Shown here: positions 2,611 through 64,000 of the stretch, one piece after another
How positions within the stretch are numbered: the stretch's first letter is position 1
Layout: every line of letters begins with the position of its first letter
Assembly (NCBI GenBank): GCA_030704615.1
Contig: CM060734.1
Span: forward strand, 19,220,001 to 19,284,000
DNA from: Takakia lepidozioides
Lineage: Eukaryota > Plantae > Bryophyta
Length of the DNA: 64,000 bases
Direction of reading: 5' to 3'
Made by a program: the position numbers and the translations under genes
Notes under the pieces: model-generated
What the model saw: only the letters and a program-made list of their open reading frames with translations
Database searches by the model: none
Told to the model about the DNA's origin: nothing

Positions 2611-2674
2611 ATTTACTTCCTCACCTGCTCATCAGCTGTGATTGTCCAACCAGTCACCACTTCATCCTGTAAGC

Positions 2675-5835: not shown

Positions 5836-5856
5836 GTCCCATGTCTTTCATTTCTT

Positions 5857-7071: not shown

Positions 7072-7322
7072 AGCTGTGTCAAGCTGTGACTGGCTGTGTG
7101 AAACTGTGACGGGCTGTGACTGGCTGTGCGACTGTGTTTGGCTGTGCCGGGCTGTGTCGGCTGTGACGACTGTGTCGGCTGTGACGACTGTGTCGGCTGT
7201 GACGACTGTGTCTGCTCTGACGACTGTGACGGGCTGTGTTGGCTGTGTCGGCTGTGACGACTGTGACGGGCTGTGTTGGCTGTGTCGGCTGTGATGACTG
7301 TGACGACTGTGACGGGCTGTGT
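7072..7322. repeat. 9-bp-based tandem array (GGCTGTGAC/GACTGTGTC) near the 5' end of family A copy 1
   Basis: Directly visible repeated ggctgtgac/ctgtgtc units. Confidence 0.95.
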
Positions 7323-7444
7323 AACCCCCCTCTACAGTGCGCTGTTGTCACCCCTAAGGCTCCTGTTGGTCTCAGTCTGTGCAAAAATTAAGGGTACCCT
7401 ACAGATCCCGTATAAGTGTCTAAGTCCCCGACAATCCTCTAATA

Positions 7445-9430
7445 GCCCCTCATTCACAGGAGCTCTCATCTCATTCTGGTGTCTGATCCAGAATGGACAG
7501 GCTGCCTTGCGATATCCGGCCTGATTACAATAGTAACACAGTTCTTCCCCATTAGGTCCTCGTCCTTGGTCTGTTCTAGGATTGTTTCTGTAATCCTGAT
7601 TCCCTGGCTGGTAATTCCCCCTTGGATTACCCTGATAGTTGCCTCTGGAATTTCCTTGGTAATTCCTTCTTGGATTACCTCTCCCTTCCATGCCATTGTT
7701 ATAACCACCAGACCTACCATAGTGGTCCTGATCACTGTTTCTTCTTGGCTGGGGCTGCACTTGATGCACCCTTACTTGCCTAGGTTCTCTTGCTGCTGTC
7801 CTTCTGTTGTAGTAACAATTCTCAGTAGAATGGTTATCCATTTTATAGATAGTACAGTGTTTCTCCTTCATGTGGCATTCTGTGGTGGTATGGCCTTCAT
7901 TCTGGCACTTTGCACACCAAACACCCTTCCTCCAATGTGTTGCAGCCTCTGTGGCATACTTCTTCAAGATTTATTCTAATTTTTTCTCTTAGCTATCCCT
8001 CTTCAACTTTTCTTTCCTCTTACTCTTCCTCTTAAGCTCTTGCTCTTCTTCCTCATCTGACTCATCCTCAGAGTCCTCATCATCCATTTTCTCTCTCATG
8101 AGCATTCCCAATTGTTCAATTCTGTTCGCTGTTTCAAATGCCTCCTCCACTGTATTATGGGGTAACATATCCATTTTCTTTTGCAACTCTGGTCTTAGTC
8201 CACTCACAAACCAAGTCTTCTGTAAACCTGGTGCTGGAACAACAGTCAGTTTTTTCATCATCAATTCCATCTTTTCCATATACTCCTCAACAGTTTCATG
8301 CTTATTTTGCTTTAACTGTTGTAAACTTTCATACACTCATCCTTTGTTTTACTTGTCCTGAACCTATTTCGGAATGTTGTATTCAAGCCATTCCAGGTTA
8401 GGAAATGATTATCAGGGAATCTTGCATACCATTCACTTGCTTTCTTTATAAGTGAACAAGGAAACAGTCTCATCTTGGCATCATCGCCATTCTCATTGTT
8501 CACAATACACATGTGCTCAAATTGGCTAATGTATACATCAGGATCCCCTTTTCCTGAATATATTGGAAAAGGTGGTTTTGCCCGTGTTGGTTGTAACGTC
8601 ATTTGTGGTGCTACCCCCTGCCCACTGACAGGTGTTGGCCCCCTTGCTGGTGCTGGTCCTTGAGGACCTGTTGTAGTTGTGATGGTACTTCCACCAAGTG
8701 CTGGCCCCTGAGCACTCCCTGCTACTAGCCCCACTATATTCACAGTATTCCCAGCTTCAGTTGCACTACTTCCCACACTCCCTGTCCCCCCAGAGCCAGA
8801 TCCAGGCTGCCCGCCTGATCCCCCTAAGCCGACACCTTCGTTGGCCTGTGATCCAAGTGCTCCACTTGATCCAGGTCCAACGGGTTGGGATGTCCTGGTT
8901 GTAGTCTCAACCTCAGCTGTTGGGTCTACTTCTTCATACTCTTCCTCTTCCAATTTCTTCTCTTCATCTTCCAAGTTCTGCCCTTGGGTTTCTTTTTCTT
9001 CACTCATGTAACTCAATTGCAATGGTGTTGGAGAGTCTGAACTCTCCGTTGGTTCTGCCACATCCTCTCCTCCTTCTTCGTCTTCCGTCTCAGAAACTGG
9101 AGTTCCTGCTTTTGGTGTTCCATGCCAACTCTTATCAAAGATTTCTATCAAATCTTTTATCCAGGGATGTACCTCAGATCTTTCACCTCGTGGTTGATCT
9201 TCATCATGTACCAATTCCCTTAATCTTTCTTGCAAAGAAAAAGAAGGAGTGGCATCCAACTCTAGTTCTTCCGGTATGGGTGATGTACTCTCTGATCTTA
9301 ATGGTGTGAGAGGTCCAGATGATTCCCCTATGTCTATTCCTCTCTCCCAAAGATATGGATAATTAGCTTTCAGATAACTTTCTTTTTTTGCTGAATATCT
9401 CTGGAGTCTAGCTTCTCTTTCATCACTCCT
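7445..9430 (-). pseudogene. gag of family A copy 2 (frameshift and stop; truncated by nested insertion)
   Basis: ORFs 8312-9259, 7989-8336 and 7332-7967 match the gag of copy 1. Confidence 0.88.
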
Positions 9431-9450
9431 GTCCCATGTCTTTCATTTCT

Positions 9451-10146
9451 TTAATGTGACAATAACCAAAACTCTCTTCTGTAGTATCTCTCGTATATGC
9501 CTGGGTTTCTTTCAAGCTTCAATGCACCCTTGGCTATACTAGAAGTCTCCGTTACCATATAACCATATGGCAAACAAGTCTGGAAAGCTGTTCTTGGTGT
9601 GAGTTTGATCCACAAAATATCCTTTGGAATCCAATTCTTTACCAGAACAAGCTCCTCATGCATATGAGTATAAACATTCACCTTCATTTCCTCCAAGCCT
9701 TCAAACTCTACTCGCTTAATGGATAGCAATGCTATCACATAAACCAGTGTTGGTAACCAACGTGCTCTTCCTCTACAGGCCACCTGATAAATCTTTATCA
9801 CTCCTTTCTCCAGACCCCACTCAGGGTCAGCATCATGCACTCTTTTAAGAATGTTTTCTTTACAACCGTCTGGCAATTCCAAGAACCTCTGAAAGAATTG
9901 TTTGGACAATCTTTCCTTCTCAGTTTCACAGGGAATTTGATTCACATCAAATTCTTTAATTCTCCGACCACCATGATCCCACCAGATGCCTGTCACATCT
10001 GGTTGTTCATGACCCAGTTCCCCAGTATGGTCGCCAAATGTCGAGCGGCTTTGACTCACCCATCCCTTCGCTATCCGAGGTGGAAACTCCAGGATATAAG
10101 AGTTGGATATCTCTAAGCGCTCAGCCTGCTCAGAACAATCAATCAT
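9451..10146 (-). CDS. Extra ORF upstream of gag, 231 aa (copy 2)
   Basis: Intact paralogue of 5857-6552. Confidence 0.7.
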   Translation of the reverse strand: MIDCSEQAERLEISNSYILEFPPRIAKGWVSQSRSTFGDHTGELGHEQPDVTGIWWDHGGRRIKEFDVNQIPCETEKERLSKQFFQRFLELPDGCKENILKRVHDADPEWGLEKGVIKIYQVACRGRARWLPTLVYVIALLSIKRVEFEGLEEMKVNVYTHMHEELVLVKNWIPKDILWIKLTPRTAFQTCLPYGYMVTETSSIAKGALKLERNPGIYERYYRREFWLLSH

Positions 10147-10661
10147 GACCTACAGCTAGTGAATCATGGTTGTGCTTCCTGTTTGTATTCCTTCGTGCCT
10201 TCATGTTCTCAATTTATCTTACTGTGGATACTCAAGCATCAGATTGCTTCAGTATCTACCAAGTTCCAATCAATCATTCATTCATTCCACAGCTTCTCTC
10301 ATGTCTCTCTACACAATATGATTGTATCGTTTAAGTATCAGATTAAGATTAATCAGGTATTAGACCAATGCCATGGTGTCCCTATTCTACCCTACTGTAT
10401 GTTTCTACAGCTTGCATCAATTAAGCCTCAATCAAGTCATCATCTCCTCTTCACTGTTTCGCTCTCCATTTTGTCTCCTCCTCCCCTCACCAAGTCGCGC
10501 TCATCCCAGAAGTGATCCCCTTCCTACTGCCGCCCTCCTAATCTACCCGCAAGCTGTTCTAACCACCTAATTAACTAACCGTCACCCCTGAAGTAACACG
10601 TTCCCTCTGCAGATGTCGTTCCCTCACAGTCGTTCCCTGTCAATGATAACTGTTCCCCATG

Positions 10662-10838
10662 TACTGTGACAGACTGTGTCAAGCTGTGCCGAGCTGTGAC
10701 TGGTTGTGTAAAGCAGTGTCGGGTTGTGACTGGCTGTGCGAAGCTGTGGCGGACTGTGTAAAGCTGTGTCGGACTGTGACGGCTGTGACTGGCTGTGCGA
10801 AGCTGTGTCAGGTTGTGTGGAGCTGTGTCGGGCTGTGT
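10662..10838. repeat. Degenerate 9-bp GCTGTG-type tandem array of family A copy 2
   Basis: Same position and motif as 7072-7322. Confidence 0.9.
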
Positions 10839-11929
10839 AACCCCCCTAAAGCCTGCTGTTGCCACCCCTAAGGCTTCTGTTGGTCTCAGTCTGCGCAAAA
10901 ATTAAGGGTACCCCATAGAACCCGTAAAAGCGTCTAAGTCCCAAGCAGCCCTCTAACACACCCCGAGTTGTGCCCAGGCCAGTTCCAAAGGAACAATGGT
11001 GGCCGGGGGTGAGGTGGAGCAGCCCAGAGAGGACGAGGTGGCCAGGCACGAGGTGCAGGCCAAGGGCAAGCTCAACATAGCCAAGGACGCGGAGGTCAGG
11101 GTGGTGACCAAGGCATGGCCAACCGGCTTCAACAGCTGGAGCAGAGGCTCGCTGCCATGGCCACAGCTCAGGTGGTACCGGCTCCAAGGCCGGATGGTCC
11201 ACCTCCTGCTCCTGAGGGAGGAGACATGGGAGGCATGGGAATCATGTGCGGGGCAACACTACCACTAGTGAGGGATGCCACTACCACTACCACTATGGGT
11301 GGGGCACCACTACCACTAGTGTCGGGCAGCACTACCACTACCACTATGAGCGGGGCAGCACTACCACTAGTGCAAGTGGAGTCAGCTGCGGCAATGACTT
11401 GAGGAGCGGCACGAGTTCCTGAGCCACGGGGTGCGAAGGTGGAGTTGGATCCATAGCGTGGGGAGGCAAGCCGTCAGGCCAGGCTTCCTCAGTCATTCAC
11501 ATTGGCGGAGACAGTGTCGACGCCGTCCATGGCACCTAGTTCTCGCCCGACTGTTACCGAGGCGGAGGTTACTATGCCATTGGGGAGAGCTACACGGGCA
11601 TCACCACTACCTAGTGTTGTCAAGGCTATGACAGCTAGTGTGCTGCTGGGGGCGGCCACAGCTGTGTGCCAGGCTCTATTGTTCTCGGCTACCATGATTG
11701 CGATGCCGGGGGTAAGACCAGCTGAGGTGTTCAGGCTGGCAGTTACACTCTGTGAGAGTGGGGAGGTTACTTCATCTTCTACGGAGATAGTGGGAGGTGT
11801 AGTGCCGGAGAGATCCCTCGGATGTGAGGGTCAAGACTGCCACGGCGGCGCAAGCTGCAGCTACCAGGTTGATGAAGCTGCCAGCTAGGCTAGCCATTGA
11901 GCGCGCCATGGTGACACCTGGAGTTGTCA

Positions 11930-12320
11930 TGTTAGACAACCAGGATGACATTTTCTGTTTGAGTGGACCGGCAAGCAAGAGGTACCGCTGCGAGTCTTGT
12001 TGGACTCTGGAGCTCAGCCATTGATGCTGGGCAGAGCTGCTATTGCAGGCTTGGGCCTACGGAGGCGGATATAGAGCCATGCCCTTTCTAGATACAGACA
12101 TCTCTGGGGGGATCAGAGCAGGCTCGGGGCATGATACGGCATGAGTTGACTATCAGACTACAGCCGGATCATCCTACAGATGGCTCAGTGATGAGAGCCA
12201 AGGCCATTGTGACAGACGCGGTCTCGTACGATGTCCTTGTTGGTAGGGCAGTGTTGTACCCCATGGGCTTCACCCTGGATTTTTGGGAGGAGTCAGCTTC
12301 CTATAGGCCTGGATGGTAGT
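11930..12320 (+). pseudogene. Aspartic protease of family B (frameshifted)
   Basis: VPLRVLLDSGAQPLMLGR at ~11982-12035; YDVLVGRAVLYPMGFTLDFWEE. Confidence 0.85.
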
Positions 12321-12699
12321 CAGGGGAGGGCCGGCGTATGCAGCTCCCCATGACATTCATAGGAGGAGTTGCGGTTGCCCAGCGAGGCAAGATGCCAACA
12401 CTGGCAGCATTCACAGCTGCAGTGACTTGGCCTGGAGAGTTGTTGGATGGCAACACTCATTCACAGGATGTGTCACCTCCGGGAGAGCACGATGACATGT
12501 ATGGTATGGCGGAGTTGCCTGCCATGGTTGCTCACACTCCATTGTGGGGCTCGAGCAAGGATTTGCAGCGGGTTGCTGATTGTCGTGTGCAACAAGCCTG
12601 GGTAGAGGCTTTTGTACCGTCAGGAGAGGAGGACAGTGCAGGGATTGCACCAGGACCACCTCAGTTGTCACCATTGGACACCACACCGATCGTGTGGCA

Positions 12700-13589
12700 G
12701 TGTCCGAATGAAGGCATTTGCCTTCTGGACTTGTTTGGCGGGATCAGCACCGGGTTGGCTGCTGTTCTACAGGCAGGGTGTACGAGTACGACGTTACTTG
12801 TATGTGGAGAGGGTTGAGAGCGCACGACGCGTCTCACTCCGTCATGTTGCTCAGTTGGTGCAGCAGTACCCTGAGTTGTTGCCGGTGTCTACAGTTCGTG
12901 GATATAAGCAGGCCTTGCCAGCAGACATCTCTATGCTGGGGGCGCAGGATTTGGAGCGGGTTGGCTCCATTGATTTGGTAGTGGCAGGTTGGCCCTGCCA
13001 AGGGCATTCATCAGCCGGGCATGGCAATGGATTGCGAGACTTGAGCTCGGGTCTGTTTTGGGAGATGGTGCAAGTTTTGCAGCTTCAACAGGCTGTATCT
13101 CCAGTATACATCTTGGAGAATGTGCCACTGATGGGCGATTCTCGGGCCAGGGTGATGGCCAGTGTGCATCAACTCTGGTCATGGCTTGGGTCAGCAGTGT
13201 TGCTGGATGTAGCTGCAGTGGGGTCACGGGCTCATCGTCCACGGCTATGGTGGATTAACTTGATGCCACCCGCACTGCTCAAGCGTGCATTTGATGGGAT
13301 GCAGCGGCCAGCACACCTCACAGTTGATAGCATCTTGGACACGGGGAGGCAGTCTCAGGGTGTGAGACACGATGACCGTCCGCCTTTGGCAGTGGTCAAC
13401 AAGGTGGGTCGACCACAAGCAACACTACCTACACTGGTCAGCTTCCCAGGATCACATGCTTTCCAAGATAGTGGACCTGGCCTCCTGTGGGATGCTCAGT
13501 TGCAGCAGTTAGTGGAGTCTAATGCCGACGAGCGAGAGCGGGCTATGGGTATTTCCACTTGGACCACGGCGTTGCTTTCTTTTTCTGAG
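12700..13589 (+). pseudogene. C5 cytosine DNA methyltransferase domain inside retrotransposon pol (1-nt frameshift at ~12778; motif X deleted)
   Basis: Motif I LLDLFGG (12722-12742), II YLYVE, III ADI, IV IDLVVAGWPCQG (Cys at 12996-12998), VI YILENV (13116-13124), VIII AHRPRLWW (13236-13244), IX ERERAMG. Confidence 0.93.
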
Positions 13590-15839
13590 CCGCTTGAGAG
13601 CGCACAGATTGAAATTACATCCAGGGAAGTGCAAGTTCTTCCACAACCAGATTGAGTATCTGGGCCACATAATATATCCTGGAGGATTGGGGGTGCAACA
13701 GACTAAGGTAGAGGCCATCGCACAGATTCCACGTCCCATGGATGTGAGCCGAGTTCGAGCTTTCATGGGGTTGGCAAACTACTATAGATGGTTTGTCAAG
13801 GGATTTAGTGCTATTGCAAAGGCTCTAACAAAGTTGACCAAGGTAGACCAGGAGTGGCAGTGGGAAGATGAGCAAGAGCGAGCTTTTCAGGAGCTCAAGA
13901 CGAGGTTGACCTCGGCGCCGATCTTGAGACGACCTATCGGGGGCGTCCCTTTCAGGTGCATACAGATTGGAGCATGCTGGGGCTTGGAGCGGTGCTCACA
14001 CAGGTGGATGATGAGGGAAGAGAGTTTGTAGTGGCTTATGCTAGCCGCTCAAACAACGCTGCAAAGTCTAAGTATAGCTCATATGAGGGGGAGTGCTTAG
14101 CTGTAGTGTGGGCCATGACACACTTCAGGTGCTATCTATACGACAATCTCTTCACCCTTGTCAAGGATCACCAGCCACTCAAGTGGTTGATGGAGTCAGA
14201 CAAGCTTACGGGGAAGCTAGCACGGTGGGCACTTATACTCCAAGAGTATGACTTCCAGGTTGTGCATCGACCGGGTTTGGTCAATAGGGATGCAGATGGA
14301 TTGAGTCGCAATCCATGCACGAGCCAGCAGGATGACACCGGAGCTCGGTGGCATGGTGAGACGGACGAGGAGATGGTGCCGGGATGGCATGCATTTGCCT
14401 TTTTGTGTATCTTGGCATCAGGAGGTCAGATTGGACCTACAACAGGGATGACTGTAGATGGAGTGTCTGAGGACCCTGAGGCTAGTGATGAGCTAGGTGG
14501 TGCCAGAAATATACATGAGAATTCGGTTGTGTTGGACTACCTCCGCACTGGAGACACAGCAGCTAGTGTGACTGCCAATGAGAGGGATCGGATCCTGCAA
14601 CGAGCCAAGAGGTTCAAGTGGGAGGGGATACACCTGCTTCGAGTGTGGGAGGATGGTCGGGTGAGGATCGTGCCTCACCCAACACAACGTGCACGGTTAG
14701 TGCGGCATGCCCATGAGGAGTTGGAACATTTTGGAGTGCGACGCACTCATAGTTTACTGCAGAGGCAGTATTGGTGGCGTGGTATGCACACAGAGGTGCA
14801 ATAGTTTGTGGCTAGGTGCATGGTGTGTGACAAGGTGCGTGCTTCATTCAACGCCTCTACATCACAATTGCATCCATTACCCATCATGGGATTGGGCTAC
14901 AGGTGGAGTCTTGACTTCGCAGGGCCATTGCCACTAACGATGCGTCACCACAGATATGTGTTGGTGATGGTGGAGCACTTCTCCAAGTGGATTGAGTTGG
15001 TTCCATTGCCTGACAAGGCTAGTGAGGGGGCTGCGTATGCATTCCTGGATCGTGTGCTTAGCCGATTTGGTGCTCCAGCTGAGGTACTCACGGACCAATG
15101 AAGAGAGTTCTTGGGGGAGTTTCAGGCTTTGTGTGATAAAGCCTTAATAGACCACCGTACAACTTCTCGAGATCATCCCGAGGCTGATGGCTTAGGAGAG
15201 AGAGTGGTTCAGATAGTGAAGAGGGGTTTGCGCAAGTATGGCTTGCGAAAATGACACCTAGGAGATTGAGATCTTCAGGTACCTTGGCTAGCCATGGGCT
15301 ATAGGTTTAGCAAGCAAGCATCAATTGCCTCCTTCTCACCATATTTCCTTCTCTTTGGCCGAGAGCCAGATTTGTCTGCGTCTATTCGCAGGGAGGCTGC
15401 AGTAGTCCTCAACCTTGATGATCCGGATGTGTGGACACAAGCATGTGCCCAGGGGGTAGAGTTGTTCCAGAGAGTCATGTCTATGGCTTTTGAGAATCTT
15501 GCTATTGCCCAACACCAAGACACATTGAGGTATGCCACTATACATGGAGGGGGATATCGGCCAGGTGTTCGGCGTTTCCACCCTGGGGACTATATGTATC
15601 TGCAGCAGACAACGCCTACGACCTTGGATGTCACAGCAAGACGTGTGATTCTAAAGATCAGGGAGGTGTTGCCTTCAGGAGTGTTGATTCTGGAGGGTCG
15701 AGATAGCATGGTATGGAAGGACCATGTGCGTAATTGTGCGCTATGTTACCTTCCACATGTGGATGGGAGGATAGATCCCAACCTTGCAGTGGTACATGCA
15801 GGATTGCGTTGCATGCTATGTGGGCATGCTGGGTATTGA
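13590..15839 (+). pseudogene. Family B pol: RT C-terminal part, RNase H, integrase (stops and frameshifts)
   Basis: KLHPGKCKFF..IEYLGH; HTDWS, YSSYEGECLA, DHQPLKWL; HAHEELEHFG..CMVC; WSLDFAGP, VLTDQ; stops at 14802, 15099, ~15252 and ~15267. Confidence 0.93.
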
Positions 15840-16183
15840 CTCCTATGAGCTTGGCCTCCCATGTCTTGTGAGCTGCCACTAGTCATATCCACTGCCACTA
15901 TCCCAAGCAGTGTGGACATAACCAATCTCCATCAAGAACCCTCTCAAGAGGTGGTGTCAAGCATCCCATGTGCCAACCTCTTAAGCATCGATCACACACC
16001 AGTATAATTCACAGGTTGCAAGACGGCGACTAACGATGGGGCAACTCTTGTACCCGGCCTCTTGATCTATTGAGTTTGAGTGTAGTAGGGACAGTGGTGG
16101 AGGACTTAGTGAGGCTATAGCCACTATCACATCTTGTGGCTACCTGGACTTAGAGGGACCTAAGCGCCAGCTAGGGGGGCGAT

Positions 16184-16722
16184 TGTGATGGACTAGTGGC
16201 AGCCTAGCGATGGACTAGTAGTAGCTAGTGTCAGCCTAGTGGTGGACTAGTGGCTGCACTAGTGGTGGACTAGTGGTTGTACTAGTGGCAGGACTAGCGG
16301 TGCACTAGTGGTAAACTAGTGATAGACTAATGTTTGGTGTGCACATGTGTTGTGTGGTTTTGGACAGCGATGTAGTTGTGTAGCGATATGTATGCGCACA
16401 ACAGCTGTCAAGTTATTTTACCACTAGTGTGAAGTTAGCTAGAAAATAGCTAGCTTTCATATATTGACATTTGGGATTGATCCAAGTGTCAATCCAGGGG
16501 CCAATACATGTTTGGGCACCTGGCGTGGTTATCTTCACGGCAGATCGCGGTGGGCTCATCTTTCTCGAGTTGAGCCTCACCACGTCTAGCTATGGCGCCG
16601 TAGTGTGGATTCCCCATGGCGTGGGGTGCAGTTGGCTCGACTTTATATTTGAGTGATGTTTTCATGTGCAAGTGTGTGGGTTTGAGAGAGCTTGTATGCT
16701 TGTATCATTCCTTTCCTTATCA
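16184..16722 (+). repeat. 3' LTR of family B containing an ACTAGT-rich array
   Basis: TG(TGATG)...TTATCA after the PPT; 16406-16722 aligns with 59185-59511. Confidence 0.8.
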
Positions 16723-16723
16723 T

Positions 16724-16910
16724 TGTGATGGACTAGTGGCTGCACTAGTGGTGGCTAGTGGCAGCCTAGTGTTGGACTAGTGGTTGCACTAGTGGCAGGA
16801 CTAGCGGTGCACTAGTGGTAAACTAGTGATAGACTAGTGTTTGGTGTGCACATGTGTTGTGTGGTTTTGGACAACAATGTAGTTGTGTAGCGATATGTAT
16901 GTGCACGACA
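16724..16910 (+). repeat. Second copy of the LTR 5' part (ACTAGT array)
   Basis: Direct repeat of ~16184-16402. Confidence 0.85.
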
Positions 16911-19317: not shown

Positions 19318-21215
19318 CTAGATATTTTCATTCTTTTTGTCTGCGTCGTTCGCAGCGTACATATTTTCTTTCACTTTCTGTGCCTCCATCTTTCCAATAC
19401 GTTTGCAGCTTGACTTGGAGGTATTCTTATGAGGACGCATCGTCCACAAAACGTTGTTCGTGTGAATCCAGGTTGGTGGATCAGAAGGGTTGAACTCCCA
19501 AACTTTACTCCAACAATTTCTATATCTCTCCACATCGTCGGTTGTACTACCTTTAGGTCTCCACCACTCCACATGGACCTTGCGATACTGAGGACTCGAC
19601 TTGTCCCGAATGACCTCTGAAATTGCCACACCCATCTAGACTGGATATGTCTCAGTGTCTGCTGGCCGAACAAGAACGAAATTTCCAACCTCAACGTCCT
19701 GAAGGGGTTCATTGGCTCCTTAGGCTTTTGGCTCCTTGGTCCACAATATGGATCCATCTGATTCACATCCTCTTCCTCTTCCGCCTCTTCATCATTTTCA
19801 ACCCTAATCCCATCTCTTTCATGAGTTTCCTTCCAACAGGTCGAAGGCCAGAACCCTTCCTGAAGCTTGTCATTGGGAGGTGCAAAGATTTGTCAAGTTC
19901 TACTAGAATATCCTTCCAGTATTCATCAAAGTTCTTCATGATGGCTCCATAGTTGCTGTCCAGCTCCATTCCACGTTTCCAAAATTCACGATACTTAGAT
20001 ATACCATTTAGAATATGGACATTTTTCTCAGACTCCCCTTCACTCTTACCTTCCCAAATAGGCTTAAGCAGAACAGGGTCTGGGTCCCCCTTTGGGAGAA
20101 GGGGAGACCTCCCGTCCTCCGCCACCTTCCACATTTTCACAGCCAGTCAGCGTCGGTACCCGATTTCTTGTATTTCATCACTGGCCATCTCTCACCATCT
20201 ACATAAAATAAAAAAATATGCATATCTGTCTGTCCGATCAGCCGGTCGTTCCCGTCAATTATATACCCGTCCACATACTTCTTGAAATCTAGAACCTCTT
20301 GTATCAACTAAGGAATGAATGAGAGCTTTTGAGACTCCATAAACAGGTGCATGAGATCCGCCATGATATAGATATTATTCTGTTCCAGCTTCTTCGAGAG
20401 ATAACTAAAGTATGCATCAATGTCCTCGTGGGTATGACCTACCATCAAGAATCCAAGCTGGATCTCTTCAAAAACCCCTCTCGATGTCAGAAGCGACAGA
20501 AATACCAACATCCATCGATTCTTGTTGTCCTTTACGCAGTTGTCCATTTGTAGATAGAGTTGACGTGGTGATGGGTTTGGTCTATCTTGTCCTTCAACAG
20601 TAAAGGGCTTGAGAGCTCTTTCACACCTCAATTTTCCCCTCATCAGGGTTTCAAAAAAGGAGTTTTGCATTGGTGAATCGAAAAAAATTCTTGTTTCATG
20701 GCAAGGTGCTTTCTCAAGTTGTCGAAGACAACGAGCCAACGAGCCGATCGTAAAGTTGGGATCATTCGACAAGAATTCGTTGGAGAACTGAGCATAGGCA
20801 CCATCACCATGTCCGTGGGTCACCATGCCTGTCAGTGATATCGGCAGCTGCCCTAGATCAGATATCATCTTGTTTGTTACCTGTAACCTTGGCAACGCAG
20901 TCTTTGAATGGTCCATCTTATCGTGAATAATACAGAGAAATTCCGACCCCATCATCGTTGACTCATTCCTCCAACTGTGATAGAGCCTTCGACACGACTC
21001 TTGATGCTTCAGGTGTCTCTCCAGTTTTTTCTTATGTTTTTTCTGCTCCTCAGTTCGGTTGACTGATTTGTGGATTAAGTCTTTAAAGATCTTGCAATCC
21101 GTGCACTTCGCAAACTTACCACCTGCCTTCCAAATCTCCACGTTCGCAAAGATCTTTGTTTTAATCCGGCTAATGGCCGACTTCGACGACGATTTAAGAC
21201 CTAGAAGTCTGTTCG
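19318..21215 (-). mobile_element. Sola-like DDE DNA-transposon transposase remnant, copy 1
   Basis: FAKCTDC; IIHDKMD; LYLQMDNCVKDNKNR; FLMVGHTHEDIDA; fragmented C-terminal ORFs. Family assigned from motif recall; termini not found. Confidence 0.72.
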
Positions 21216-21397
21216 CCTAAAACCACAGCAAACTGGACATAAATAAAAAGAAAACGTGTCCATTACAAGAAATGATGCCATGAATGAGGACGGGAGGTCT
21301 CCTGTCCTCTTTGGTATGACTCTTACCTAGAAGTCTGTTCGCCTGAAACAACAGCAAACTGGACATAAATAAAAAGAAAAAGTGTCCATTAAAAGAC
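21198..21397. repeat. ~72-bp direct repeat, two copies about 127 bp apart
   Basis: acctagaagtctgttcgcct...ggacataaataaaaagaaaa..gtgtccatta occurs twice. Confidence 0.85.
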
Positions 21398-36107: not shown

Positions 36108-36635
36108 CTAGGGTAGCCTATGCTGTTGGCCCAAGCGTCCAATGTCATCTATGTCCAAGTGCAATCCCCTATGTATCCAGAGACCCCACTGTTTGGGAGA
36201 TCTAGGGTAGCCTGTGCCAGTGGCCTATGTGTGAAGAATCGAAATCTAAGCCCCCCACTGTATCCAAGTGCGTGTCCCATATAAAGGCCCAGGTGCGACC
36301 TCCAGTGTCCAATGTCACCAATGTCACCTAAGTCCAAGTGCAATCCCAAAACCCACTTTGCTATTTTTCGCGAATTTCCAGCGACCAAAAGTACTTGCGA
36401 TTCCAAATCTCCCACGTGAAGGGCCAATCATTGCTCCAGAAAAGCCCACTTTGCTATTTTTCCCGAATTTCCAGCGACCAAAAGTACTTGAAATTCCACA
36501 TCTCCCACACACCGCAGGTCCAAAATCATGAGACCAAGCCCGTGCACCCCTTCTCGTCGAGGGCAAAACAAAACAAAACACCCCTTCTCGTCGAGGGAAA
36601 ACAAAACAAAACAAGCGTCTCGCTTCATATATTGA
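36108..36635 (-). mobile_element. Non-autonomous Helitron-like element
   Basis: Minus strand reads A|TC...CTAG|T with an imperfect subterminal hairpin and a (GTTTT)n tract near the 5' end; related copy at 44209-45030. Confidence 0.75.
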
Positions 36636-43226: not shown

Positions 43227-44208
43227 GTTGTGTCTTCCCGGTCAGGCCTGGCGCACCAGGTCCCTACCTTCGTCCTTATGCATTGAATCCATTCTTAGTT
43301 TACTGCTCCAAAGCTATACAAGTTCGCAATTATCACCAGATTTTGAGGGATATCGCTCTAAGTTTCCATGCGAGCGATCTAAGCTCCCAACCCCATTGCT
43401 AGAGCCGAATTTAATGAGGCATCTATCGTTCCAACCTCAATCCAGGTGTTGTTGACTGTTTCACGTTTCACTCACGTCTCTAACATTATACATGTACTTC
43501 GAAAAACCCCTTCAACGTGCAGATAATTGCTTCTAGTGTGGGACCCCAAAACAGTTTTGTGCGCGGAGACTGTGATGGCGCGATTGAGCTCCTTCCAGCA
43601 CATCCTGGGCAATGCGGGGTGTGGAATTGCGCTTCCACTTGGGAAATGCAAAGATCCCTCTGGGAGCTATATGAGCCTTGAGCCACAGCTGCTGGTCCAG
43701 ATCCCAACACAGATTGTCAGCTGACGTTCACACCACTCCGCGTTTCCCACAGACGTCACCACCACTGACTCCGCTCCTGAATTTCTTTGCAGTAGCCAAA
43801 AACCTCAGACTCAATTCTCGCAAACGACAATTCACAGATCCCTACTTTCTCTACATCCAAATCCACGAACCCATCTCCTAAAATCCTACAACCACCACGC
43901 CACCTCTCACACAAACAGAAACAAACCTCCCAGCTCCTCCCCCGCAATCCACGATCCCCTCCAGCAGAACCCACGATCCTGATCACCACATCCCTCCTCC
44001 GTCACTCTACCGATTGCCAACCCCCAAGCACGAGGAGCCCAGCCGCCAGAGGTCAGACATGCCACAGACATGCAGCCGTCATAAAGTTGTAGGAAACCGA
44101 GGGGGCCAGGCCGGCCATCCCCGCTGTCATTTATGCTGGTATGTATCCTATACTAATTTATGTGCACATATGCGTACATATTTGTACTTATGTATAGTTA
44201 TTGCTTTA

Positions 44209-45030
44209 CTAGGGTAGCCTGTGCCGTTGGCCCAAGTGTCCAAGTGCAATCCTGTATGTATCCAAGTGGGCTCCTGTGTCCATGCCCAAATGCGACCTCT
44301 AGGGTAGCATGTGCCGTTGGCCCAAGTGTCCAGTGTCATCCAAGTCCAAGTGCAATCTCCTATGTCGAGGCCCAAATGCAACCTCTAGGTAGCCTGTGCC
44401 CTTGGCCCAAGTGTCATCTAAGTCCAAGTGCAATCCCCTATGTATCTAGAGACCCTCATGTTTGGGAGATCTAGGCCTAGGGTAGCATGCGCCATTGGCC
44501 CATGTGTTAATAATTGAAATCTAAGTCCAAGTGCAATCCCCTATGTATTAAGTAGCGTCTTCTATGTCCATGTGCGAAGAATTGAAATCTAAGCCCAAGT
44601 GCAATTTCTTATGTATCCAAGTGGGTCTTCTATGTCGAGGCCCAAGTCTATTCATGCATTCAAGTGCATCTCCCATGTACATGCCCAAGTGTCTAGTGTC
44701 ATCTAAGTCCAAGTGCAATCCCATATCTCATCATTTTTTTTATTTTCAAAGTGCCTACAACCAGATTTGAACAGGAGACCTTTCCCTTGTGTCTCTCCTG
44801 TCGAGGCTCAACCATTCTCCTAGGAATGCCCACTTTGCCATTTTTTCTATTTTTTGTGAATTTCCAGCGACCAAAAGTACTTGGAATTCCACATCTCCCA
44901 CACCGTAGGTCCAAAAATCATGAGACCATGCACCCCGTCGAGGGCTTTCCAACGGTACCAAGCATCAGGGCTAGGGCCTTGCGGTTTGGGACATCTCAGC
45001 GTGACAAAACAAAACAAATGTCTTGCTTGA
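44209..45030 (-). mobile_element. Non-autonomous Helitron-like element with reiterated 3' ends
   Basis: ctagggtagc.tgtgcc module repeated at ~44209, 44299, 44385 and 44477; same 5' end as the 36108-36635 copy apart from a short deletion. Confidence 0.75.
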
Positions 45031-53432: not shown

Positions 53433-54189
53433 TTAAGGTGCCCCATTGCATGCGTCCACTCCCCACTCACTAGAACTTTATTAATACTTAAGCATATGCA
53501 CATTACTTTGAACAGAGGTATACCTAACATCCAGCTTGATATTTCATCCCTAGAAAATGCTTGGGACTCGAGTCCACGTATACATCTTTTGAACCCTAAT
53601 GATAGGATCCGAAAACAAACCACGCTTAAACTCTTCAAGCAATACAATAAATCAACAATTTTGCAACTCACATATGCAAATGGCACCACGCTCATTAACC
53701 CACGTGCATTCCATCTGCGGTACCCTAAACCACCGACGCGCTCCCAATATATCCATTTGACCCACCTTCAAACACTCCTATGCTATCCCACACCCGCATG
53801 CCTACAAATTATAATAAGTCGCCTCACCACGCAATATACAAATGGTAACGCAATATCACCAACAACCCACTACTCAGTACTTATCACACATCCATAACCA
53901 TCAAGTTGCGGAACTGCAACCCTTAGACAACCGCTTCATCAGCCCACCCAGAAGTATACCAAACTTACATATTTATTTAACTGAATGTGATCCAAATAAA
54001 GATGTTATGTCAATCCACCCTCACATCTACACAAACAATATGTCGTGCGCATACGTATCGCTACACAACTACATCGCTGTCCAAACCACACCACACATAT
54101 ATGCACAATAAAGTAGTCTGCCACAATAGATAAGAAAGCTAAAAGACACATTGTTCACACAAGAAACAACATGAATCCAACAACATCAC

Positions 54190-56260
54190 TCTTTAAAAAA
54201 ACCGGAATACGTGCATTTCGGAAGTCCCGATCAACTCTTCATTTCCATCTAGAATAAAGCCTTTGACGAACTTCTTAAAGTCGGGTACCTCATGAATAAG
54301 TTGTGGAATAAACTGCAGATCTTAAGAGATCATGAATGACCTCATCAAATCCGGAAGAATGTAGGTGTTCCGTTCCTTTAGCTTCTTCGATAGGTAGCTG
54401 AAGAAACCATCAATATCTTCCTGAGTGTGGCCGACCCTGAGAAACCCCAGCTGGATCTCCTCAAAAACACCTTTGGCAGTAAGGAGGGAAAGGAAAGCAA
54501 GCATCCATCTATTCTTGTTATCCTTCGCGGAGTTGTCCATTTGTAGATAGAGTCATCTCGGAAGCCAACGAGCACCCCTTTTGTCTTGTGGCGTGCAAGG
54601 TTTCAAAGCATCCAAACATCTCAATTTACCTCTCATGAGCGTTTCAAGGAAATCATTCTGAAGTGCATAATAAAAAATGTTCCTGGACTCTCGACAGGTT
54701 GGCTTCTCAAGCCGGCGAAGACAACGAGCCAAAGAACCAATCGTAAAGTTTGAATTTCCCTTCCAGAACTCGAGAGAGAGAACTGACCGTATGCTCCATC
54801 CCCGTGTCCATGTGTGACCATTCCCATTAGCGAGACAGGCAACTGACCCAGTCTCGAGATCATCTTGTTGGGTGTCTGTAGCCTCGGAATAGCTGTTTTC
54901 CTATGATCCATCTTATCGTGAATAATACAGAGAAACTCCTCCGGAATCATAACTGACTCATTCCTCCAGCTATGGCACAATCTTCTGCATGACTCCTGGT
55001 GCCTCAAATGTTTATCAAGCGCTCGTTTATGTGCGACCTGTTCCGTATTCCTCTTGATAGACTTTTTGATCAAGTCCTTCAACATCTCACATTCCGTGCA
55101 CTTTGCAAATGTGGTTCCAGTTTTTCAGACCTCCACGTTCGGAAATATTTTATTCCTGATACGGCTAACAGCAGGCTGCGAGATTGGTTTCAATCCAAAT
55201 ACTCTGTTCGTCTGAACCCCAAAATGTCAGACACTAAACATCCACTGGCCAGTGGAGGTTTGGGAAACATACATGCCGGAAAGAAAATGAAAATATTTGA
55301 AGTGTTCAAGGAAGAAAACAAATTTGAGTGAGGTAAAAAAATAATGCAGAATTATTACCTCATGGGACTCCTCTCGTATTCTCTTCCAGTTCATTTCCGG
55401 TGGTAAGACCCTCAAAGTATCCTGCCTTCCATCCCCAATGCACCTTGTCTTATGAGGCATGAGGTCCGAATTTCCGTTAATAATGGACATGATGGTCCCC
55501 TCTGCCTCGATGGTCTGTGGTCATGGCCGCTTCACGCCACGGTTCCCATGAAGAGATGACAGCCAACCCTCTTTACTCAACTTTTTGTACTCTATGTAGG
55601 TGAACCTACCAATTCCATGAATTGTCCACCATGCTTTCTCACAAACATCAACACCCTCAATGGTTACGTAAGCCCTCCGCGACGTTCCTTCCAGCACGTG
55701 AAGTCCTTTAGAAACATTTAGTCCATGTTCTCTCCTCTCATCAAATGTGGACCCCCAAAATGCAGTGCGGATAGCCAATGTTTTCCTCCAATCGAAATAT
55801 TGGCAGCACTGAAGTATGCAGCAATTTTTGCTACTAACAGATCGGACTTCCTCCATAGTAACATTTCTCTTGCATTTTTTGAAGTCATGTGCTGTGGCAA
55901 CCAACTTCTTCCTGGTGAAATGGCCTGCACGCCGATTTCTTCACACCAGTCTCATGATCGTCATTTTGAGTATCGTCAGAAGATCGGATAAAATTCTCCA
56001 AATCAACACACAGCAGACGCCTGTTCTCCAAAAGTTTGTTTTTGTCAACGGCCATTTTACAAGTGACATCAGACAACCAGATCCTCCAGATAATATTCTG
56101 GTCACAAGAACCCCAACATCGTCCTCTCCAAGCTTGTCATTGAGAATTACTTCGTCCGGTATGCAAGTTTGAATTCGACCTTCGAACAGGGCACTACCAT
56201 CATCTCCAAGGAGCAAACACTACAAGTTTCTCCAGCTGTTCCTTCCCAATCCTTCACCGG
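54190..56260 (-). mobile_element. Sola-like DDE transposase remnant, copy 2 (intron at ~55200-55356; stops and frameshifts)
   Basis: CC...CC; VCEKAWWTIHGI..HGN; FAKCTEC; IIHDKMD; MDNSAKDNKNR; VGHTQEDIDG; paralogous to 20308-21141. Confidence 0.75.
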
Positions 56261-58880: not shown

Positions 58881-59179
58881 GGCGGGTTGCAAATGACGGA
58901 TTAGGGTTTCAGCAAGCTTTTATAATCCTAATTTTAATTGTCATCCAGTTTTGCCAAATATTCACCGGCTTTTTTGCCAACCCAAATCCACCGTAGCCTA
59001 CTCTACTCGTAGGTCACCGTAGACCTTTTCGCTGACAGTATTCATAGAGCCACATAAACTTCATGAGAAGCACAGAGTGGAGGTACCTGTGAATGTGTGC
59101 ACCAGAGGCAGAAAAAGGGATGCCATGACCCCAGGAAAAACATTGAGAATATCCGACCACAGTGCTGTAAGAGGAGTTA

Positions 59180-59511
59180 TGATGTGTCAAGTTATTTTAC
59201 CACTAGTGTGAAACTAGCTAGGAAATAGCTAGCTTTTACATATTGACATTTGGGATTGGCCCAAGTGTCAATCCAGGGGTCAAGGCAGATTTAGGCCCTG
59301 GAGTGGTTATCTTCACGGCAAGCGCGGGAGGCTCATCTTTCTCGAGTTGAGCCTCACCGCGCCTAGCTATGGCGCCGTAGTGTGGATTCCCCATGGCGTG
59401 GGGTGCACTTGGCTTGACTTGTATTTGAGTGATGAGGTTATATATGCATGAGTTTATGCTTCAGCTTTGTGAGCTCGCATGAGCTGAAGCTTGTATTCTT
59501 CTTCTTTATCA
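59180..59511 (+). repeat. 5' LTR of family B
   Basis: TGAT...ATCA termini; similarity to the 3' LTR stops exactly at ttatca. Confidence 0.82.
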
Positions 59512-59523
59512 CTCGAGAAAGAT
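59512..59523 (+). promoter_or_regulatory. Putative self-priming primer-binding site
   Basis: ctcgagaaagat is the exact reverse complement of atctttctcgag (59335-59346) inside the LTR; no TGG tRNA-type PBS. Confidence 0.7.
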
Positions 59524-61042
59524 CAGCTCGTATCTATGAGTGCTAGATACGAGTTAGTTGTAGCACTTGTGGTTTTTGCTTGAGATTGAGAGAAACCAAG
59601 TTGTTATGCAAGGAGCACCATGGAGCTCTTGGTTGTTAGAAGCGGAGGCGATGTGGGTTATGAGGTGGTAGACCTTGGCATTCGATCTTCAGCTTCAGAG
59701 ATGAAAGCACCATGCTGCAGGTAATTTCAGAGCACCTTGATGGTTTCAGATTGTGTACATGCATGAGCAAGCACGATTGGGAAGAGGACCAGTCAAGAGC
59801 AGGTTATAGTGGCTTTGGTGGCAAAGCTGAGAACTGGACTTGGGAATGCGAGCTTTCATTGTGTGAAGGATTGCAAGACCAAGCGAAAGGGCTGATTTTG
59901 CTTGGGGCAAATCAGTGCACTTTGTGGAGTATGGTGAGATTGGGTTTCAATCTCGAGCTTCAGCATTGAGAGGGCTCTTGTCATGGCAAGAGCAGGGCTG
60001 GAACAGGAGCTAAGAGGTGCGGCAAGGCCATGGAATGTGCACCTAGGGTTTCAGAGCTTGGAAGAAGAGTTCTTGCACCACAAGAGAAGTGTCTTGTGGC
60101 TGGAAATGTAAGCCTTAGGGTTTCAGGAGCTTGGCAAAGGCTATGGAGTGCTTAGTTTTGTCATAGAGAGCATCAAGGAGCCAAGGAGCCAAGATAGGGG
60201 GCTGATATCTCTTGTGTGAAGAGGTTGCATGTGTGGAGCATGTATTCAGCTCATTGAAGCTTCCATCTTCAAGCTTGGAGGGCAAGCAAGGAAGAGGGAA
60301 GGGCTGACTTCCCTTATGTGAGGGCAATGTATGTGTGGAGCATGCTGTCAGCCTGGTGAAGGCTTGCACTTTTAGGTGTGGGAGTGCAAGGAAGGAAGGA
60401 AGGGGCTGGTTTCCCTGTAGGGCATGTAGAGCATGCTTTCAGCCTGCTGAAGCTTGTATTTTCAGGTTTGTGGATGCAAGAAATGAAGCAAAGGAGCTGA
60501 TTCTCTTATGGTGAGAGTGGGGCATGTGTGGAGCATGCCTTCAGCCCATTGAGGCTCTTGTTTTCAAGCCTTAGAGAGCTAGAACGGAAGGTCTAGGGCT
60601 GGTTTCCACTTGGAGTGAAAGAAAAGCACTTGTAGGGCCTATGTGAGTTGGGGTTTCAACTTCAAGCTTGAAGGGAGCGCAACTCTTGAAGCAACAGGTG
60701 TAGAGGGCTGGAATAGGCTCTAAGACAGATGTTATGGCCAATGAGAGTGCTTGAATGAGTGCTCACAAGGGCTGGAACCAGCAGGGCTTGGTTGTTTGCC
60801 ATTGAGTTTAGTGGCGTGTTTGGGGAGGCTAAGTGAGAAAAAAGGCTTGGTTTGTGGCAACCACCTCATGGCTTAGGGCTACTATGGTGGTGTGTGGGAG
60901 CCGAAAGAGCAAGGATACCTTGCTGATTTCCTCACAGCCACCATAGCTCGGTGGAAAGAAGCCTAGAGTCCAAGAGACACAAACCCTAGCTTGGCGTGGC
61001 TAAACCCCTTGGAGAAATGGCTAAACTGCCAGAGCGGCCATG

Positions 61043-62092
61043 TGTGGGGCTGTGACAGGCTGTGGCAAGCTGTGACAGGCTGTGACGGGCTGTGACAGGC
61101 TGTGGCAAGCTGTGACAGGCTGTGATGGGCTGTGATAGGCTGTGCCCTGTGCCCTGTGGGGCTGTGACGGGCTGTGTCAGGCTGTGACGGGCTGTGTCAG
61201 GCTGTGACAGGCTGTGCCCAGTGGCCTTTTGGGGCTGTGACAGGCTGTGCCCTGAGGCCTGTGGGGCTGTGACGGGCTGTGACAGGCTGTGCCCATGGCC
61301 TTTGGGGCTGTGATGGGCTGTGAGGGGCTGTGACAGGCCGTGCCTGAGGCCTTTGAGGCTGTGATGGGCTGTGATGGGCTGTGACAGGCTATGCCTTGTG
61401 CCCTGTGGGGCTGTGCGGGGCTGTGACAGGCTGTGCCCTGAGGCCTGTGGGGCTGTGACGGGCTGTGACAGGCTGTGCCCATGGCCTTTGGGGCTGTGAT
61501 GGGCTGTGAGGGCTGTGATAGGCCGTGCCTGAGGCCTTTGCGGCTGTGAGGGGCTGTGAGGGGCTGTGACAGGCCGTGCCCGAGGCCTTTGAGGCTGTGA
61601 CGTGCTGTGAGGGGCTGTGACAGGCCGTGCCCATGGCCTTTGGGGCTGTGACGGGCTGTGAGGGGCTGTGACAGGCCGTGCCTGAGGCCTTTGAGGCTGT
61701 GACGGGCTGTGAGGGGCTGTGACAGGCCGTGCCCATGGCCTTTGGGCTGTGACGGGCTGTGAGGGGCTGTGACAGGCCGCGCCTGAGGCCTTTGGGGCTG
61801 TGACGGGCTGTGAGGGGCTGTGACAGGCCGTGCCTGAGGCCTTTGGGGCTGTGATGGGCTGTGACAGGCCGTGCCTGAGGCCTTTGAGGCTGTGACGGGC
61901 TGTGAGGGGCCGTGACAGGCCGTGCCCATGGCCTTTGGGGCTGTGACAGGCCGCGCCTGAGGCCTTTGGGGCTGTGACGGGCTGTGAGGGGCTGTGACAG
62001 GCTGTGCCTGAGGCCTTTGAGGCTGTGACGAGCTGTGAGGGGCTGTGACAGGCTGTGCCCAGTGGCCTGTGGGACTGTGACGGCTGTGACCA
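61043..62092. repeat. ~1-kb minisatellite of GGCTGTGAC 9-mers with a higher-order ~37-46-bp period
   Basis: Directly visible. Confidence 0.96.
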
Positions 62093-62994
62093 GTGAGCTG
62101 TGTGGGCCTGTGCTGGTCTGTGGTGGCCCGTGTTGACCTGTGGACGGCCTGTGCTGACTCGTGGAGGCACTGGTGGACTGCCTAAGGACTGGCATGTGGT
62201 CTGGAAGGCCGAATTTTGAAGCTCGTGGAGGGCGGTTTGAGGAGTATCTTCATGATATTCCCATGGTCATGCAAGTGAGGGAAGAGAGGAGAGGAAGAGT
62301 GTTGGGATGAGGGCCTGGGGTTAGGCATTGCTTTAGCTTCTCTTCCTCGTAGTTTCCCCCCTCTCATTAGGCCAAGACCTTTCCGTAGGTGGAGGCAAGA
62401 GTCAGTCCGAGTTTGGGCTGGGGTGTCCTTGCAGGAGCAACACCGTGGAGTTGTTTTTGGTGTGGGGGAGTTGTCGTTCTGATTTCTTGTGTTTGGATCC
62501 CCTCCATACCTGCATGCTTGACTGTGCGCCATGCTAGTTTTGTGTGGGCGCTTGTTTTTATAGGTATTGGTCCGGATTTGATCACCGGCCAGTCCTAGAG
62601 CATGCTGTCGATGGTGAGGCTGGGGTGATGACCAGCCAGACCATCATTGTTTCTCTTGTGGTGAGGTTGGAGGTGATGACCAGCCAACCATAGGAGTGCT
62701 TGCGGTGGATGCAGGTACAGGTGTAGGCTATGTTAGGAACTTAGTATTCCAAACCATAAGCCGCAACAGGTTCTCTACCCGGTTACCTTGTGGAGAGGGG
62801 GTTAGGGACATGTTCATGCTGGGGATAGTGCCGGTTCGAGCACTAGCGATACTAGTGGGTACACGAGACGAGGTGTGCGGTTTAGGCCACCTTCACCTCC
62901 TGTGTCTTCTACGGAAGGTTCTGATTCGGATTGTGAATCAGGAGGACTCATACCGGCGGTGCAAGTTGTTTCTTTGCCATTGTTGTGGGACACA

Positions 62995-64000
62995 ATGGAG
63001 GAGATGTATGGAGCTACCAAGGGGCCACGAAGGTACTCTGGGGCGGTGGGCACCATCGAGTTGGATGATTTTATCCAAGAGTTTGATAGTTGGTGTGATT
63101 TGCAGCAAATGCGCAATCCACAACTATTTACGCCTTTCATGGCATGGAAGGGGCTGTTTCAGCACCTTGAGGGGCCGCCTATGGATGATTACCATGAGTT
63201 CAGGCGGGGGCATGAGGTTGAGATCGAGGAGTGGAGGATGTACTGGTCACCCGACTATGTCTCCATCACTAGGGGCACTAGAGCCACGAGGGCAGTGGCT
63301 ACACCTGCCGCTGCACCGGCAGCTTCAGCAAGCAGCAGTGGGACTGGTGGTACAGTAGCTACGACGTCCACCCAAGCCACTACCGCACCAGCACTAGCAC
63401 CCGTGCCTGCCTTCAACCCTGTTGTGGAGTTCTTCGAAGAGTTGAGAGGGAACTACCAAGGGGTGAGGACAGAGAAGTTGCGGAGCTTGCAAGAGTTCCA
63501 ACGGAAGCCGACCGAGAGCTTGAGGGAGGCTTTCACTCGCATGAGGCGCTTGATAAATGTAACCCAAGGGGTTACGGAAGCTCAGGCAGTCCAATTCTGG
63601 TATGTGATATTGGACAAGGAGCTGAGGAGAAGGGTGCGGGATGCAACTCTCCTACAAGCGGCCCAACCCACCTTAGCAAGTGGTGCTCCTAGCCAACCAC
63701 CACCTCAACGTGCTCAAGGCAACAAGGGGGCTCAGGTGAAGCTCAGGGAAGGGCAGAGAGGACCTCAGATGCAGGGGTCTCTCCCTTCATTTGCTGGCCA
63801 ACAACGGGCGGATGTGGTGTGCTGGACATGTGGAGGACCCCATGTCAAGAAGGATTGTCCAGAGGGAGGCAAAGGGCCGGCACATGCACAGCCTGCACAG
63901 TTACAGTGTGGGCATTGTGGCAAACACGGGCATGGAGAGGCTCAGTGTTATGGTTTGCATCCTGAGTTGCGCCCAGGCCAGTTCCAAGGGAACAATGGTG
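62995..64000 (+). CDS. gag of family B (open to window end)
   Basis: IELDDFIQEFDSWCD; LQEFQRKPTESLREAFTRM; knuckles CWTCGGPHVKKDC and CGHCGKHGHGEAQC. Confidence 0.88.
   Translation, partial: MEEMYGATKGPRRYSGAVGTIELDDFIQEFDSWCDLQQMRNPQLFTPFMAWKGLFQHLEGPPMDDYHEFRRGHEVEIEEWRMYWSPDYVSITRGTRATRAVATPAAAPAASASSSGTGGTVATTSTQATTAPALAPVPAFNPVVEFFEELRGNYQGVRTEKLRSLQEFQRKPTESLREAFTRMRRLINVTQGVTEAQAVQFWYVILDKELRRRVRDATLLQAAQPTLASGAPSQPPPQRAQGNKGAQVKLREGQRGPQMQGSLPSFAGQQRADVVCWTCGGPHVKKDCPEGGKGPAHAQPAQLQCGHCGKHGHGEAQCYGLHPELRPGQFQGNNG

Follow-up and report, generated by a model that had tools for sequence, protein, structure and literature searches.

The locus analysed here, a 64,000-nt stretch of the Takakia lepidozioides genome (GenBank GCA_030704615.1, contig CM060734.1, positions 19,220,001–19,284,000; hereafter the window), raises the question of how a repeated LTR-type element primes its reverse transcription and where the ends of its inserted copies come from. 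A 327-bp repeat bounded by TG and CA (repeat A1, 59185–59511, plus strand) forms the 5′ terminal repeat of the right-hand of two copies of one family, and upstream of 59185 the depth in run X1 drops from about 10^6 to about 127. The terminal CA (59510–59511) is adjoined, with a gap of 0 nt, by a primer binding site (PBS, 59512–59523, plus strand) that is the exact reverse complement (12/12) of 59335–59346 within the repeat. This complementarity was the core of a sequence-only reading that had proposed tRNA-independent self-priming, and it is confirmed: a 12-nt complement arose in 1 of 20,000 dinucleotide shuffles of the 327-nt repeat. According to the methods of PMC6317226, a self-primed element carries its PBS 0–5 nt after the 5′ repeat, with complementarity to the repeat over at least 10 nt, and the right-hand copy has the Tf1-like features of both position and complementarity. 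The segment 59335–59346 (plus strand) is thus the predicted self-primer, that is, the first 12 nt of the RNA, with 59331 as an alternative start.

The public data used to follow this match comprised contigs of four runs, two of them of one sample, in which depths are not copy numbers; they indicate that the family is highly repeated in its genome. Over 59331–59347 the primer:PBS match reaches 16 of 17 positions, with the sole mismatch at 59524, where ~71% of X1 depth (264,826/370,528) carries a G that removes the mismatch, so that the match spans the entire 59331–59347. Neither primer nor PBS shows a variant of ≥3% among the variants listed from the public-run contigs. The start of the PBS differs from TGG, no tRNA genes were found in the 64-kb window by ARAGORN, and 59100–59800 has no match in Rfam. 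Directly 3′ of the PBS lies a hairpin (59525–59555, plus strand; z −3.7) whose stem shows a double change, from A-T to G-C, at 59536 (66% of X1 depth) and 59544 (70%); in the sole X6 contig, only the 59544 change is present. Of the two flanking hairpins previously pointed out, this one is real, but the perfection of the other (59458–59490) is peculiar to the window copy: it needs GAA at 59486–59488, where 97–99% of X1 depth has other letters. Repeat A is covered ~2.5–3.7 times as deeply as the internal region in runs X5 and X8, which weakly hints at solo A-B remnants. A generic scan for CA followed by a PBS over the loci gave many AT-rich chance matches and was left unused.

The repeat at 59185–59511 was rejected as an ordinary LTR, as it corresponds to repeat A of an element with the order A-coding-B-A-B, which in the window was pieced together from two copies. 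The right-hand copy contributes A1, the PBS and a gag-like ORF (62806–63999, plus strand; no Pfam match) that runs off the window. The second, broken copy (10959–16167, plus strand), interrupted by a minus-strand Gypsy element (69–10950), comprises the end of gag, a protease-like region, a C5 DNA methyltransferase (DNMT), the C-terminal part of the reverse transcriptase (RT), RNase H (RH) and integrase (IN). Its DNMT (12606–13652, PF00145) lies between the protease-like region and RH-IN, the N-terminal part of its RT is deleted, and it bears frameshifts and stops. This left copy continues, all on the plus strand, with a polypurine tract (PPT, 16168–16183) directly before repeat B1 (TG...CA, 220 bp, 16184–16403), then repeat A2 (16406–16722) and repeat B2 (16724–16910), which ends in GACA and closes the copy on its 3′ side. 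The B|A joint, CA-GC-TG (16400–16409), is a palindrome of 8 bp here and of 10 bp, GACAGCTGTC, in relatives, and is a candidate integrase attachment site, whereas the A2|B2 joint, CA-T-TG (16721–16725), is a candidate scar of LTR-LTR end joining. The CTAG(G)n motif of the PPT recurs in the related loci L063, L012, L082, L067 and L076.

Repeats A1 and A2 are identical in 273 of 332 alignment columns. They belong to separate insertions 42.8 kb apart, and the earlier view of 16406–16722 as the other LTR of the same element was rejected for this reason. The description of the element as DNMT-bearing holds for the family by homology, but the methyltransferase itself is not seen in the right-hand copy, which is cut off by the window edge within gag; the two copies are linked by the shared repeat and by a 43-nt overlap at 91%, and gag homologues are present in 47 of 82 DNMT loci. 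Both joints were also recovered in loose ends of public-run contigs, CA-T-TG in six X1 contigs, indicating that the A-coding-B-A-B order is a trait of the family.

Relatives were collected with a DNMT profile search, from which the best 80 of 174 confirmed metagenome loci and one genome-collection contig were taken. Among the fetched loci, 74 form one family, with L067, L076 and L082 being distinct, and L063 and L048 are whole A-coding-B-A-B elements. The long uninterrupted ORFs of L082 and L067 encode gag-PR-DNMT and, after a stop, RT-RH-integrase-PHD. Their integrases match rve and H2C2; the long ORFs gave no match to a tyrosine recombinase, and both elements have a PHD finger instead of a chromodomain, for which no match was found in the two. 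The best match in a PDB search was Ty3. Homologues of DNMT and pol are named from liverworts, Sphagnum, Closterium and Klebsormidium, and by this homology the lineage extends to liverworts and mosses. Protein P0167 of K. nitens, with DNMT, RT, RH and IN, is 39% identical to the left copy in the DNMT and 49% in RH-IN.

Several side observations concern these relatives. The PHD finger at the integrase C-terminus (residues 990–1034 of L082 pol; likewise in L067) is common across homologues and possibly represents a chromatin reader paired with the DNMT. A single in-frame stop separates DNMT from RT in four divergent relatives (L082, 3488–3492; L067, 5082–5086; L076, 4660–4664; L001, 4508–4512), which suggests stop-codon readthrough, with more DNMT than RT and integrase being made. 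L082 (1–9285) is a complete eukaryotic-type retrotransposon on a circular contig (127-bp end overlap) within a genome record assigned to a cyanobacterium, and probably is a mis-binned algal element. Among viral contigs, a single weak DNMT match (L081) yielded nothing useful, a junction-motif match (L083) was dismissed as chance in phage-like DNA, and the hairpin motif described below had no matches.

Primer and matching PBS differ from family to family: ATCTTTCTCGAG in the window, ATCTTTGTCAAG in L082, ATTCTTGTCAAG in L067 and ATAGTTCTTTGAG in the moss type. In an alignment of nine sequences from four families, 8 of the 12 primer:PBS pairs have changed on both sides, and the covariation of PBS and repeat across copies, put forward with the initial proposal as a check, was thus found. 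In the same alignment, 96.3% of the cells of the primer:PBS helix are paired, against 36–48% in slid controls, a value flattered by the hand-picking of the six moss-type rows from 19 anchored copies, which leaves the between-family changes unaffected. The moss-type copies are decayed, with 5–13 of 13 Watson-Crick pairs over the 19 anchored copies, and 5 of 24 could not be anchored. L082 and L067 have exact 12-nt matches that likewise begin with AT after C. Five loci without the primer or PBS region (L001, L013, L068, L076 and L079) went unscored, L076 giving the PPT and B|A joint only. Because the 12-nt match covaries with the repeat across four families, abuts the terminal CA and lacks a TGG start, tRNA-independent self-priming is well supported, and we consider priming from the element's own RNA highly likely on this comparative evidence, with the RNA start being a predicted one. 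The start at the primer is pointed to by TATA spacing in relatives only: a TATA or TATA-like box begins at −29 from the first A of the primer in L082, L067 and the moss-type family, and the window has only a weak TATA-like TTATCT at 59307 (−28). Three single-cell RNA runs labelled with the species of X6 gave 0 mapped reads, which says nothing for or against expression or the start. What counts against this start is that complementarity to the PBS reaches beyond 12 nt (16 in most window-family copies, 15 in L067 and ~16–20 in the moss type), which would fit an RNA start at least 4 nt further upstream. The half of A upstream of the primer (59185–59334, plus strand) is predicted to be U3-like, with a putative promoter role; it contains three strong hairpins in a row (z −4.5), and similar inverted repeats occur in L082.

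The primer had also been described as the 12-nt loop of an 8-bp hairpin. The stem (59328–59355) is real and extends, with one bulge, to 59322–59362 on the plus strand (z −5.8, 0 of 200 shuffles), straddling the predicted RNA start, but three additional pairs are predicted within the loop, which reduces the unpaired stretch from the stated 12 nt to 4. Retention of the hairpin in A2 (at about 16547–16584) stands as far as the fold is concerned: the exact stem has changed, with GA>TG at its first two positions, a change also seen in 7% of X1 depth, and the bulge has moved with the fold kept. A hairpin spanning the predicted start is found in every family that was folded. When the RNA starts at the primer, the predicted primer:PBS pairing is 0.70 in the window and 0.91, 0.82, 0.99, 0.52 and 0.96 in the other five sequences. 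Adding 20 nt of upstream sequence abolishes it (0.0) in the window, L082 and L065; it is still 0.99 in L063, 0.99 in L007 and 0.71 in L067, partly because the PBS of these three extends into the arm; in folds from the start of A, it is 0.0 in 4 of 6 sequences. Given the loss of predicted pairing in the window, L082 and L065, the hairpin would compete with priming rather than present the primer, acting as a likely, though not uniform, primer lock. Its likeliest role, to which these folds lend a fair probability, would be to hide the 3′ primer copy in A2, since only transcripts of A2 or read-through RNA should include the upstream arm; it may instead serve in termination or act at the DNA level, the minus strand of the hairpin region folding equally well.

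Three other readings of the primer region were weighed. The RNA could start upstream of the primer, with the loop of a leader hairpin nucleating the pairing with the PBS and two cuts releasing the primer, as the sequence-only reading had envisaged. In the window family, 11 of 12 primer bases do lie within the loop closed by the 8-bp stem, which is kept in two subfamilies through the bulge shift; but in the two algal-like relatives, L082 and L067, and in the moss-type L065, the primer sits mostly in the 3′ arm of a hairpin with a loop of 3–4 nt, and the loss of predicted pairing with the hairpin intact in the window copy, together with the TATA-like box at −29 in three related families, leaves this loop-presented primer unsupported and unlikely. 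Loop palindromes drive retroviral dimerisation, and the CTCGAG in the loop region of the window copy might be such a kissing signal, with the PBS match as a by-product. We rejected this idea as the least probable of all, given that the loop palindrome is not conserved (none in L082, L067 and L065) and that the PBS match is kept through double changes. Scarcely more credible is priming by a tRNA or tRNA fragment, with the complement inside A masking the PBS for regulation: there is no TGG at the start of the PBS, and 8 of its 12 positions vary among families together with the repeat, which would not be expected of pairing with a conserved tRNA. Self-priming from the 5′ end of the RNA thus remains the preferred reading.

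Further pairings are predicted around the primer duplex. The segment following the predicted cut (59346–59353, plus strand) pairs with 59411–59418 (8 bp, 2 G-U), and the partner motif GCTTGAC with a pairing of 7–9 bp is also found in L082, L067, L063 and L007, with one change in L065. A U5-like stem has its 5′ arm at 59430–59437 (plus strand) and pairs with 59504–59511 beside the PBS; the position of this partner is not conserved in relatives. Both flanking duplexes of the Tf1 'pretzel' are possible in the window copy (8 bp each) and weak or G-U-rich in relatives, where conservation is instead seen for another duplex, immediately 3′ of the primer. It is doubtful that this lineage has the third Tf1 duplex.

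The ends of the element pose the larger problem. As the PPT lies directly before B and the PBS directly after A, LTR-type reverse transcription, an established mechanism (PMC7175516), should give B+A at both ends. Only the A-coding-B-A-B and A-coding-B forms were seen, that is, no element with two full end LTRs. Inserted copies end with the start of A and the last end of B, flanked by 4-bp duplications. Of the 10 loci that retain both ends, 7 have an exact duplication; in the remaining three, it matches in 3 of 4 bases (two loci) or in none (one locus). The distinct 3′ ends comprise 14 of the PPT-B-flank type versus 5–6 of the B-A-B or B-A type, and B was found upstream of A in 0 of 21 distinct A-PBS copies. 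The B|A palindrome, GACA-GC-TGTC or a close variant, is present in all five families seen (window, L007, L012, L063, L067, L076 and L082). The A|B joint is variable: GT in L012, AT in L063, T in the window, a 22-nt insert ending in PPT letters in L048, and 9 nt of the PBS plus PPT-like letters in L069/L072. These joints, from four moss-type loci and the window family, look like joined cDNA ends.

We propose the following model. Transcription would start at about 59335 inside A, so that the upstream arm of the hairpin would be absent and the 5′ 12 nt could pair with the PBS; RNase H, a domain present in the left copy and in L082 and L067, would cut behind position 59346, the way it does in Tf1. 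Transcripts of the 3′ copy, A2, would include the upstream arm, which would sequester the primer sequence. Given the positions of PPT and PBS, ordinary LTR-type reverse transcription would then yield a linear [B A]-internal-[B A] DNA, the ends of which would be joined to produce the variable A|B joint. Finally, the DDE integrase would cut the fixed palindrome inside the repeat, GACA^GC^TGTC, and insert A-internal-B-A-B, a staggered cut after each CA leaving recessed CA ends ready for strand transfer. The A-internal-B copies could result if both palindromes are cut, if 1-LTR circles are used or if B1 and B2 recombine later. Taken as a whole, a self-primed Gypsy-DNMT element with a hairpin lock on its 3′ primer, end joining and inner-palindrome integration appears reasonably probable to us. 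Integration through the inner palindrome after end joining is plausible, with chances around even or marginally better, its steps being deduced from the ends and joints. It counts against the model that the RT-defined ends still carry TG and CA. Moreover, a symmetric cut of a circle should also give A-B-A-internal-B copies, and the lack of B upstream of A in the 21 copies means that the choice of palindrome would have to be biased, contrary to a simple circle model.

Self-priming could also be right and the split order arise by another route, either an RT jump from the end of A to the start of B or splint ligation. Splint ligation on a B1-A2 template has been proposed for tyrosine-recombinase elements. 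Such a route would explain why A-internal-B-A-B occurs and A-B-A-internal-B never does (0/21), and the traces of PBS and PPT left at the joint could stem equally from RT jumping end to end or from ligation. However, a cut at the B|A palindrome would still be needed for the observed left end and its 4-bp duplication, and the long ORFs of L082 and L067 have no tyrosine recombinase match; we hold this route to be a rather improbable alternative, although the one to be taken most seriously. End joining followed by a cut at the inner palindrome is retained as the preferred account.

The window contains further repeats. On the minus strand, an 80-bp piece (54041–54119) resembles the 3′ end of repeat B and ends in GACA; it adjoins a broken DUF7869-like ORF region (54368–55219, 68% like 20378–21224), and no partner A end sharing a 4-bp duplication with it was detected. 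Tandem arrays of the 10-bp GCTGTGAC type (7057–7324, 10647–10852 and 61023–62159) are common to the 5′ leader of the element and the unrelated minus-strand Gypsy at 69–10950, which itself contains a 3.4-kb tandem duplication (3854–7212 and 7447–10829, 89%). A cluster of short repeats with CCAAGTGTCA-type units is present in two copies (36108–36564 and 44207–44945).

The split-repeat order, missed by the sequence-only reading, is a more unusual feature than the priming. Self-priming alone is a modest extension, now to the Gypsy-Dnmt3 lineage; of greater consequence is the discrepancy between the ends that PBS and PPT predict for reverse transcription and those found in the genome. It seems to us an evenly balanced proposition that a streptophyte lineage has moved the attachment site of its DDE integrase to a palindrome within the LTR, primes itself, integrates only via a circle or concatemer, and tells the 5′ from the 3′ primer copy by a hairpin spanning the RNA start. 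If true, the 2-LTR circle would be a normal integration precursor and not a dead end, which bears on the old question of whether such circles can be true precursors of integration. Split-repeat elements are likely missed by standard LTR finders, even though the window family is highly repeated.

The closest described relative is KnitGypsy-Dnmt3 of Klebsormidium nitens, for which a figure legend in PMC5890265 notes DIRS-like repeats with Gypsy domains without giving a mechanism; the DIRS element in the same paper has the order A-coding-B-A-B. The window element shares with KnitGypsy-Dnmt3 a C5 DNMT among Gypsy pol domains and the DIRS-like repeat order, and it fits the Gypsy-Dnmt3 lineage, the DNMT having been compared by pairwise similarity to K. 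nitens P0167. It differs in that the intact relatives analysed here have a stop codon separating DNMT from RT and carry a PHD finger at the C-terminus. In the accessible part of the KnitGypsy-Dnmt3 account, neither priming nor integration is explained, and PBS, PPT and target duplication are not mentioned; our search of largely open-access literature found no mechanism for split-repeat Gypsy elements or for priming or integration in Gypsy-Dnmt3; with the present model, the unexplained legend remark becomes testable.

In its priming, the lineage resembles Tf1, which according to the sections available primes with the first 11 bases of its RNA, cut by RNase H within a three-duplex structure (PMC7175516, PMC10085805); self-priming has been predicted for 12% of plant elements in the dataset of PMC6317226. 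As in Tf1/Tf2, Tj1 and the Tf1/sushi group including plant Tcn1, for which the portions of the reports at hand place the PBS directly after the CA with complementarity to 11–13 nt of the repeat (PMC7175516, PMC10085805, PMC4600332, PMC6317226), the element carries its PBS directly after the CA, and as in the Tf1/sushi group there are further stems beside the primer duplex. Unlike that group as described there, it carries a DNMT, its split repeats take the place of two LTRs and a PHD finger stands in for the chromodomain, and unlike in Tf1, the third 'pretzel' duplex is not consistently found. The priming thus appears Tf1-like, but the PHD finger and split repeats would set the lineage apart from Tf1/sushi. 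In repeat order it is like PAT, Ngaro and VIPER (A1-coding-B1-A2-B2), which use a tyrosine recombinase according to the relevant section of PMC6681497, whereas the lineage described here has an rve integrase, a PPT, a PBS and 4-bp target duplications. In its putative integration, it recalls foamy virus, the integrase of which cleaves palindromic 2-LTR junctions (PMC1180852), and HIV-1: a palindromic CA-nn-TG joint is cut by a retroviral-type integrase, as would be the case here (PMC1180852, PMC1905944, PMC4372172). In the foamy virus and HIV-1 work, as far as these sources cover it, the palindrome is a ligated LTR-LTR joint and a side route, whereas the palindrome of the present lineage lies within the repeat, is templated and marks the ends of the copies checked.
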